DNA of 64,000 nucleotides from NCBI RefSeq assembly GCF_036507355.1, contig NZ_AP027877.1, one strand, 5' to 3'. This document shows, one piece after another, positions 32,786 through 33,498 of this stretch. How positions within the stretch are numbered: position 1 is the first letter of the stretch; every line of letters begins with the position of its first letter. The translations under genes and the position numbers were made by a program. Source of the DNA: Escherichia coli (GTDB lineage Bacteria; Pseudomonadota; Gammaproteobacteria; Enterobacterales; Enterobacteriaceae). Below the pieces are notes generated by a model. It was not told the origin of the DNA, searched no databases, and worked only from the letters and a program-made list of their open reading frames with translations.

Positions 32786-32989
32786 ATGCATACCTCCGAG
32801 TTGCTGAAACACATTTATGACATCAACTTGTCATATTTACTACTTGCACAGCGTCTGATTGTTCAGGACAAAGCGTCCGCTATGTTTCGTCTCGGCATAA
32901 ATGAAGAAATGGCGACAACATTAGCGGCACTGACTCTTCCGCAAATGGTTAAGCTGGCAGAAACCAATCCCAGGAGATGCCAAAGCTGA
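32786..32989 (+). pseudogene. flhD: flhD remnant: codons 1-61 intact, then out-of-frame junction (PRRCQS-stop)
   Basis: [61 protein letters not shown] equals recalled FlhD residues 1-61. The sequence diverges at ~32969/32970. Confidence 0.85.
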
Positions 32990-33498
32990 CGGAAGATCTC
33001 GTTCCTGGCGTCGTCACGCTCACCACACTTCATAAAGTGCTGCAAAATCTCCTCGATGAAAAAGTACCGATTCGCGATATGCGCACCATTCTCGAAACGC
33101 TGGCGGAACATGCGCCCATCCAAAGCGATCCACATGAATTAACCGCCGTCGTGCGCGTGGCGTTGGGACGGGCGATTACCCAGCAGTGGTTTCCTGGCAA
33201 AGATGAAGTCCATGTTATTGGCCTCGATACACCGCTGGAACGTTTGTTACTACAGGCGCTGCAGGGCGGGGGCGGACTGGAGCCAGGGTTGGCGGATCGT
33301 TTACTGGCGCAAACTCAGGAAGCGCTATCCCGTCAGGAGATGTTGGGTGCGCCGCCAGTATTGTTGGTGAACCACGCGCTGCGACCATTATTGTCTCGCT
33401 TTCTGCGCCGCAGCTTACCGCAGTTAGTGGTGCTGTCGAATCTGGAACTATCTGATAACCGACATATCCGCATGACGGCGACAATTGGCGGTAAATGA
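32970..33498 (+). pseudogene. flhA: flhA remnant: last ~175 codons only
   Basis: [28 protein letters not shown]...SDNRHIRMTATIGGK matches the recalled C-terminus of FlhA. It is in a different frame from the flhD remnant. The native stop overlaps the flhE start. Confidence 0.85.

Follow-up and report, generated by a model that had tools for sequence, protein, structure and literature searches.

The joint between flhD and flhA

In the stretch of Escherichia coli DNA analysed here (the window, 64,000 nucleotides), the 5' part of flhD runs directly into the 3' part of flhA. The joint and its immediate neighbours comprise the following features, the promoter elements being named after their presumed counterparts in K-12:

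31578..32006, minus strand: uspC, the intact left-hand neighbour
32509..32524, plus strand: CRP-site-like palindrome TGTGATCTGCATCACG, centred about -71.5 from the predicted transcription start and identical to MG1655
32553..32588, plus strand: presumed flhDC class I promoter, with -35 TTGTAT (32553-32558), a 17-nt spacer and -10 TACAGT (32576-32581)
32589..32786, plus strand: flhDC 5' leader, intact, with 4 differences from MG1655 and G4/9
32787..32989, plus strand: chimeric flhD' ORF of 67 codons, comprising FlhD residues 1-61, then PRRCQS and a TGA stop (32987-32989)
32969, no strand: deletion junction, a single C that is either flhD nt 184 or flhA nt 1550
32970..33498, plus strand: flhA 3' remnant (flhA'), flhA nt 1551-2079, with 175 complete codons (518-692) and a stop at 33496-33498
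33498..33890, plus strand: flhE, complete (130 aa when counted from the K-12 start), overlapping flhA by the native ATGA
33950..33995, no strand assigned: hairpin with perfect 14-bp arms and an 18-nt loop, between the convergent flhE and yecT

The joint was mapped by BLAST of window 30001-37000 against the flh region of MG1655, with G4/9, the closest complete genome on the left flank, as a second reference. At window 32969, flhD nt 1-183/184 (codons 1-61) abuts flhA nt 1550/1551-2079 (codons 518-692), and for MG1655 as for G4/9 the two reference alignments meet there with a 1-nt overlap. The initial annotation, made from the letters of the window alone, had read flhD as intact to KLAETN (codon 61) and then passing, at about 32969/32970, into out-of-frame flhA, and had proposed an alignment to the MG1655 flhDC-flhA region; the ORF list, Pfam and BLAST agree with this reading, and the alignment places the breakpoints at flhD nt 184 and flhA nt 1550. 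Since the two-piece alignment of the window runs at 98.8-99.0% identity over kilobases, chance is no concern for the junction.

Relative to both MG1655 and G4/9, 14,513 bp are missing, close to the earlier estimate of the order of 15 kb. In MG1655 the missing interval is 1963501-1978013, or the same interval shifted by one base. Lost with it, according to the MG1655 and G4/9 annotations, are the 3' part of flhD, flhC, motA, motB, cheA, cheW, tar, tap, cheR, cheB, cheY, cheZ, flhB and flhA codons 1-516/517. Both annotations bear out the flhC-to-flhB list of lost genes in the initial annotation, and the sRNA MotR, also annotated inside the deleted interval, has to be added to it. The 64-kb window holds no copy of the deleted segment except one 34-nt chance match. 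With flhD cut after codon 61 and flhC wholly absent, FlhD4C2 is precluded at this locus.

Every base at the junction can be assigned to flhD or to flhA, leaving no inserted bases, IS, scar or filler. Within 100 nt on either side of the endpoints, neither direct nor inverted repeats rise above chance (one shared 7-mer versus 2.3 +/- 2.1 in shuffles). The joint is thus free of IS and repeats, as previously described, and the 1-2 nt of microhomology suggested for it come down to one shared C.

The chimeric flhD' frame encodes FlhD residues 1-61 (MHTSELL...QMVKLAETN) exactly as in K-12 MG1655 and matches positions 1-61 of 102 of the Pfam FlhD profile (E 6e-26), while its PRRCQS tail is flhA sequence in the wrong frame. 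On the other side of the joint, what had been estimated as the last ~175 codons of flhA is exactly that number of complete codons. The longest ORF of flhA' starts at the native Met520 (ATG at 32977), encodes 173 aa in a frame other than that of flhD', shows no amino-acid difference from MG1655 over FlhA 520-692, and matches positions 490-655 of 657 of the Pfam FHIPEP profile (E 2e-40). Its ATG stands directly against an AGGAG with zero spacing, and there is a 10-nt overlap with the flhD' stop. Downstream, flhE follows normally, as had been noted; the encoded protein is 99.2% identical to that of K-12, with no stops and no gaps, and an in-frame ATG at 33495, one codon upstream, offers an alternative start (131 aa). 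The class II promoter of flhE, which normally lies upstream of flhB, is gone with the deletion.

On the left of the joint, the uspC-flhD intergenic region contains no IS. IS1H of K-12 is absent from it, and the empty target site of that element lies at 32481-32488. Because no IS lies upstream of flhD, the flhDC promoter region would be in its "unactivated" natural state. By alignment to MG1655, transcription is predicted to start at about 32588, 198 nt upstream of the flhD ATG; this position equals MG1655 1978395, where the annotated antisense RNA AsflhD also ends. The promoter stretch shows no difference from MG1655, and the palindrome at 32509..32524 is what we take to be the putative CRP site of flhDC. 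A simple consensus scan did not flag the promoter, as is expected of a weak, activator-dependent one. The leader differs from MG1655 and G4/9 at 32623, 32624, 32641 and 32661. We considered and rejected the idea that these four differences are decay that followed the deletion, since they belong to a common allele that is identical in motile strains: over 32590-32700, with all four sites included, many complete genomes, O157:H7 and ATCC 8739 among them, have a leader with 100% identity, and 2,450 genomes reach at least 99%.

The surrounding genome and the occurrence of the junction

From 19890 to 64000 the window is collinear with MG1655 at 98.5-99.0% identity (the window core). All 44 of its 44 K-12 core protein genes are full length, with no stops or gaps, eda being cut only by the window end. 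The core contains neither IS nor the pseudogenes that would mark reductive evolution of the Shigella/EIEC type; a Shigella-like process or general decay is rejected on this basis. The promoter, leader and remnants appear free of decay, which would fit a recent deletion, although nothing can be dated from remnants this short. Compared with G4/9, the left flank (19740-32969) is 99.6% identical and the right flank (32969-38473) 98.8%, but the closer match on the left already ends some hundreds of bases short of the junction (10 mismatches fall in 32300-32969). This shift appears to be ordinary recombination mosaicism and not to be tied to the deletion. Only two Rfam matches in the window exceed the gathering score, and both lie to the right of the joint:

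37724-38031, plus strand: MicL sRNA, within and next to cutC (373.7 bits)
41967-42009, minus strand: ES036/CssrF, near cmoB-torZ (40.5 bits)

None of fliA, fliC and fliD lies within the window, the left 19.9 kb of which is a defence island abutting a fragment of leuZ. This variable island (window 1-19889, with its boundary at 19890) has no counterpart at this position in MG1655 and includes the following genes:

3437-4564: integrase-like gene
7779-9302, 9292-10566 and 11296-14583: hsdM, hsdS and hsdR of a type I restriction-modification system
10563-11246: YecA-like UPF0149/SEC-C gene, nested between hsdS and hsdR
15361-17232: GmrSD type IV nuclease
18523-19704: Mrr-like nuclease

The island also holds two unannotated genes and encodes a YgjP-like metallopeptidase and a PD-(D/E)XK protein (PADLOC candidate PDC-S26). 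At 80% coverage or more, 78 complete genomes have similar islands, whose content varies, and in related genomes the island continues to a P4-type integrase adjoining pgsA. One of its proteins, when used as a probe, matched unrelated genomes, the protein being widespread. The MG1655 alignment begins inside the tRNA-Leu gene leuZ (MG1655 1991870), of which approximately the 3' 56 nt are present (window 19890-19945); ARAGORN found no tRNA gene in the 64 kb. The fragment looks like an att-type repeat at the island boundary, and an intact leuZ-cysT-glyW should lie beyond the window start.

The initial annotation had also proposed searching related genomes for the junction, and had named an assembly artefact as one possible refutation of it. 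An identical 40-mer across the joint is present in the NCBI isolate assembly GCA_905398635.1, in the Logan assembly SRR31122001 and in the ENA metagenome ERZ24911501. The window differs from GCA_905398635.1 by 1 SNP in 20.2 kb and from SRR31122001 by 4 SNPs in 13.4 kb, with one SNP position common to both against the window. The junction is thus shared by near-identical isolate loci, and the artefact objection fails against a 40-mer that recurs unchanged in independent assemblies with different SNPs. In addition, the exact 67-aa product of flhD' is on record on 7 public contigs; it is GenBank BED22058.1, "hypothetical protein VEE46_18260", on an E. coli chromosome of 4,643,937 bp. In all, at least 4 data sets, each assembled independently, have the junction. 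Because it occurs in at least three SNP-distinct genotypes, it would have been inherited by all of them, and the deletion would predate the small diversification of the clone.

Searches of larger collections were negative. A 201-nt probe gave a contiguous match to the joint in 0 of 5,426 complete RefSeq E. coli genomes, its halves matching separately, and neither GTDB species-representative genomes nor JGI metagenome contigs contain the junction 40-mer. A 70-aa version of the chimeric ORF, from a GTG start, is not on record. The 173-aa FlhA ORF was uninformative as a probe, being also called in many assemblies with a frameshifted flhA. We found no mention in the literature of GCA_905398635, SRR31122001, ERZ24911501 or VEE46. 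With 7 contigs on record and none in the complete RefSeq, GTDB and JGI sets, the clone appears rare.

Origin of the deletion

Here, we propose that a single, spontaneous, IS-independent deletion of 14,513 bp gave rise to the joint and has been inherited in a small natural E. coli clone, a reading to which we assign a probability of about 0.9. In the ancestor of this clone, flhD codon 61/62 would have been joined to flhA codon 517/518. The ends share only 1 nt, and illegitimate (homology-independent) end joining of a double-strand break, or a replication error, is therefore the probable source of the joint, with a topoisomerase error as a further possibility. RecBCD/LigA alternative end joining and gyrase would be among the candidate pathways. 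An illegitimate deletion would have at most a few nucleotides of endpoint homology, which is what is found. Illegitimate deletion and alternative end joining in E. coli likewise leave joints with zero to a few nucleotides of microhomology, no insert and no mobile element. The event removed the C-terminal half of FlhD together with FlhC, leaving no FlhD4C2 activator, and also the stator MotAB, the chemotaxis core CheAWRBYZ/Tar/Tap, FlhB and the membrane domain of FlhA. The allele may have been kept because in the gut the loss of flagella carries no cost or even brings an advantage, as other strains suggest; neutral drift of the allele is equally possible and would fit the apparent rarity of the clone.

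Loss of this block is a known, recurrent event in E. coli, and the IS-free joint is the only unusual feature of the present case. At least 80% of the 14.5-kb block is kept in one place in 5,366 of the 5,426 complete genomes. With a 5-kb probe running otsA-uspC-joint-flhE-yecT-argS, the flanks were found brought together in 31 of the 5,426, and an IS1 transposase is annotated at the joint in every one of these 31. The deletions are of about ten different extents and so represent independent events. They come from pig, chicken, duck, human, seawater and wastewater isolates. As in the window, everything from the master regulator through the export gate is lost in them, and the uspC side is joined to the flhA'/flhE/yecT side, sometimes with a C-terminal stub of FlhA left; strain DAM, for example, reads uspC - IS1A - flhA C-terminal remnant - flhE. 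In the window, by contrast, the joint is IS-free, its microhomology amounts to 1 nt, and the full promoter, the leader and flhD codons 1-61 are kept.

Similar losses have been selected experimentally. During mouse gut colonisation by MG1655, deletions of 1.5-12 kb between otsA and cheB removed flhDC (Giraud et al. 2008, PMC2174974, where Leatham 2005 and Gauger 2007 are cited). The IS1 upstream of flhDC is the starting point of these deletions, and the flagellar regulon is no longer expressed in their presence (PMC2174974). They arose next to IS1 in a laboratory strain, whereas the deletion in the window belongs to a natural non-K-12 lineage without that IS1 and reaches further, into flhA.

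Given this precedent, and the presence of IS1 at all 31 comparable joints, an IS1-mediated adjacent deletion followed by loss of the IS1 deserves consideration. We regard it as very unlikely, since no IS1 or IS fragment is retained at the joint or anywhere across uspC-flhE, where all bases at the joint belong to flhD or flhA. An IS1 left by an adjacent deletion is not flanked by a target duplication, so that scar-free excision is not to be expected. Moreover, the left breakpoint lies inside flhD, and the region upstream of it is undisturbed and matches common alleles. Somewhat less improbable, though still poorly favoured, is the spread of the deletion allele among E. coli backgrounds by homologous recombination in place of descent within a single clone. 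This is prompted by ERZ24911501, a metagenome contig with 1.8x coverage that carries the identical junction but another haplotype upstream of window 32662 (compared over 32084-32661), with K-12-like alleles at 32623, 32624, 32641 and 32661 and without the 17 bp at 32326-32342. At that coverage and in a mixed community, a chimera of co-resident E. coli strains is the simpler reading of the contig, and both loci derived from isolates differ from the window by only a few SNPs.

A laboratory origin, as an engineered allele or from a classical strain such as K-12 RP3098, has only a slight chance of being right: identity to MG1655 of 98.5-99.0% over 44 kb shows that the strain is not K-12, the IS1H upstream of flhD is absent, the 20-kb defence island is not found in this part of MG1655, no scar of an FRT site or antibiotic cassette is seen, both breakpoints are intragenic and out of frame, and the junction also occurs in a metagenome. 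Least probable of all, to the point of being negligible, is a mis-join or collapsed repeat in the assembly. An isolate draft, a Logan assembly of another run, a metagenome contig and a complete chromosome share the junction, and three SNP-distinct genotypes carry it; it is neither confined to one assembly nor explained by a repeat, as endpoints with 1 nt in common leave no repeat to collapse.

Consequences for motility and meaning of the finding

In light of a single spontaneous deletion inherited in a natural clone, what might be its consequences for the cell? Transcription of class II depends on FlhD4C2, as does that of class III by way of FliA. The export gate includes FlhA and FlhB, MotAB form the stator, and CheA-Z with the MCPs make up the chemotaxis pathway. 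The best experimental proxy for the expected phenotype is K-12 RP3098, delta(flhA-flhD), the classical host of the chemotaxis field, which is without any flagellar proteins; it differs from the strain studied here in its K-12 background and laboratory origin. Given the FlhDC dependence of class II and III genes and the example of RP3098, the lineage is almost certainly non-flagellate, non-motile and non-chemotactic. Outside the window, the genome may still contain a second copy of the lost genes or an independent lateral-flagella (Flag-2) system. Silence is predicted for the whole class II/III regulon, including the flg and fli genes elsewhere and one gene in the window:

23214..23537, minus strand: yecR, intact, 107/107 residues aligned and 1 substitution relative to K-12

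[quoted passage not shown] An intact yecR would thus be left here without its activator and would, very probably, be silent.

Less firmly, it is plausible that the flhDC promoter, itself wild type, remains active and drives transcription of flhD'-flhA'-flhE, a remnant operon without function. A terminator scan found no terminator-like site before flhE, and the only hairpins inside flhE are weak and also native. The first strong hairpin downstream is the one at 33950-33995, past flhE, with a predicted RNA fold of -34.2 kcal/mol (z = -3.9). It was not flagged by the terminator scan because its T-run lies on the yecT side, so that its role as a plus-strand terminator is putative; it is likely to be the end of any transcript passing flhE. 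Translation is another matter. Efficient independent translation of the FlhA stub is doubtful, because of the zero spacing between AGGAG and ATG and the overlap with the flhD' stop, and re-initiation from that overlapping stop would be its sole route. Rho-dependent polarity after the early stop, acting over the untranslated 0.5 kb, could limit read-through; it could also lower flhE expression, as flhE is normally coupled to flhA.

There is an outside chance that the remnant operon behind its CRP-dependent class I promoter yields functional products, or that the allele is an adaptive marker moving by recombination. If so, the FlhA 520-692 fragment or periplasmic FlhE, for example, might have a moonlighting role in a flagellum-less cell, or the allele might move between gut E. 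coli backgrounds, as the mosaic ERZ24911501 contig might suggest.

It is already established that E. coli discards its flagella time and again and can gain by it in the gut. The deletion described here is thus of low conceptual novelty and raises no new biological question. What it adds is that natural loss of the flhDC-flhA block is not exclusively driven by IS1, with one IS-free case against 31 IS1-associated cases examined; the 31 genomes with IS1 at the joint could in turn serve as a catalogue of independent motility-loss events. The practical use of the deletion, for typing and lineage tracing, is modest. By PCR, the junction can serve as a precise marker for a rare E. coli clone that would be non-motile (H-negative by serology), and it accounts for such a clone typing as NM even though it probably retains fliC.
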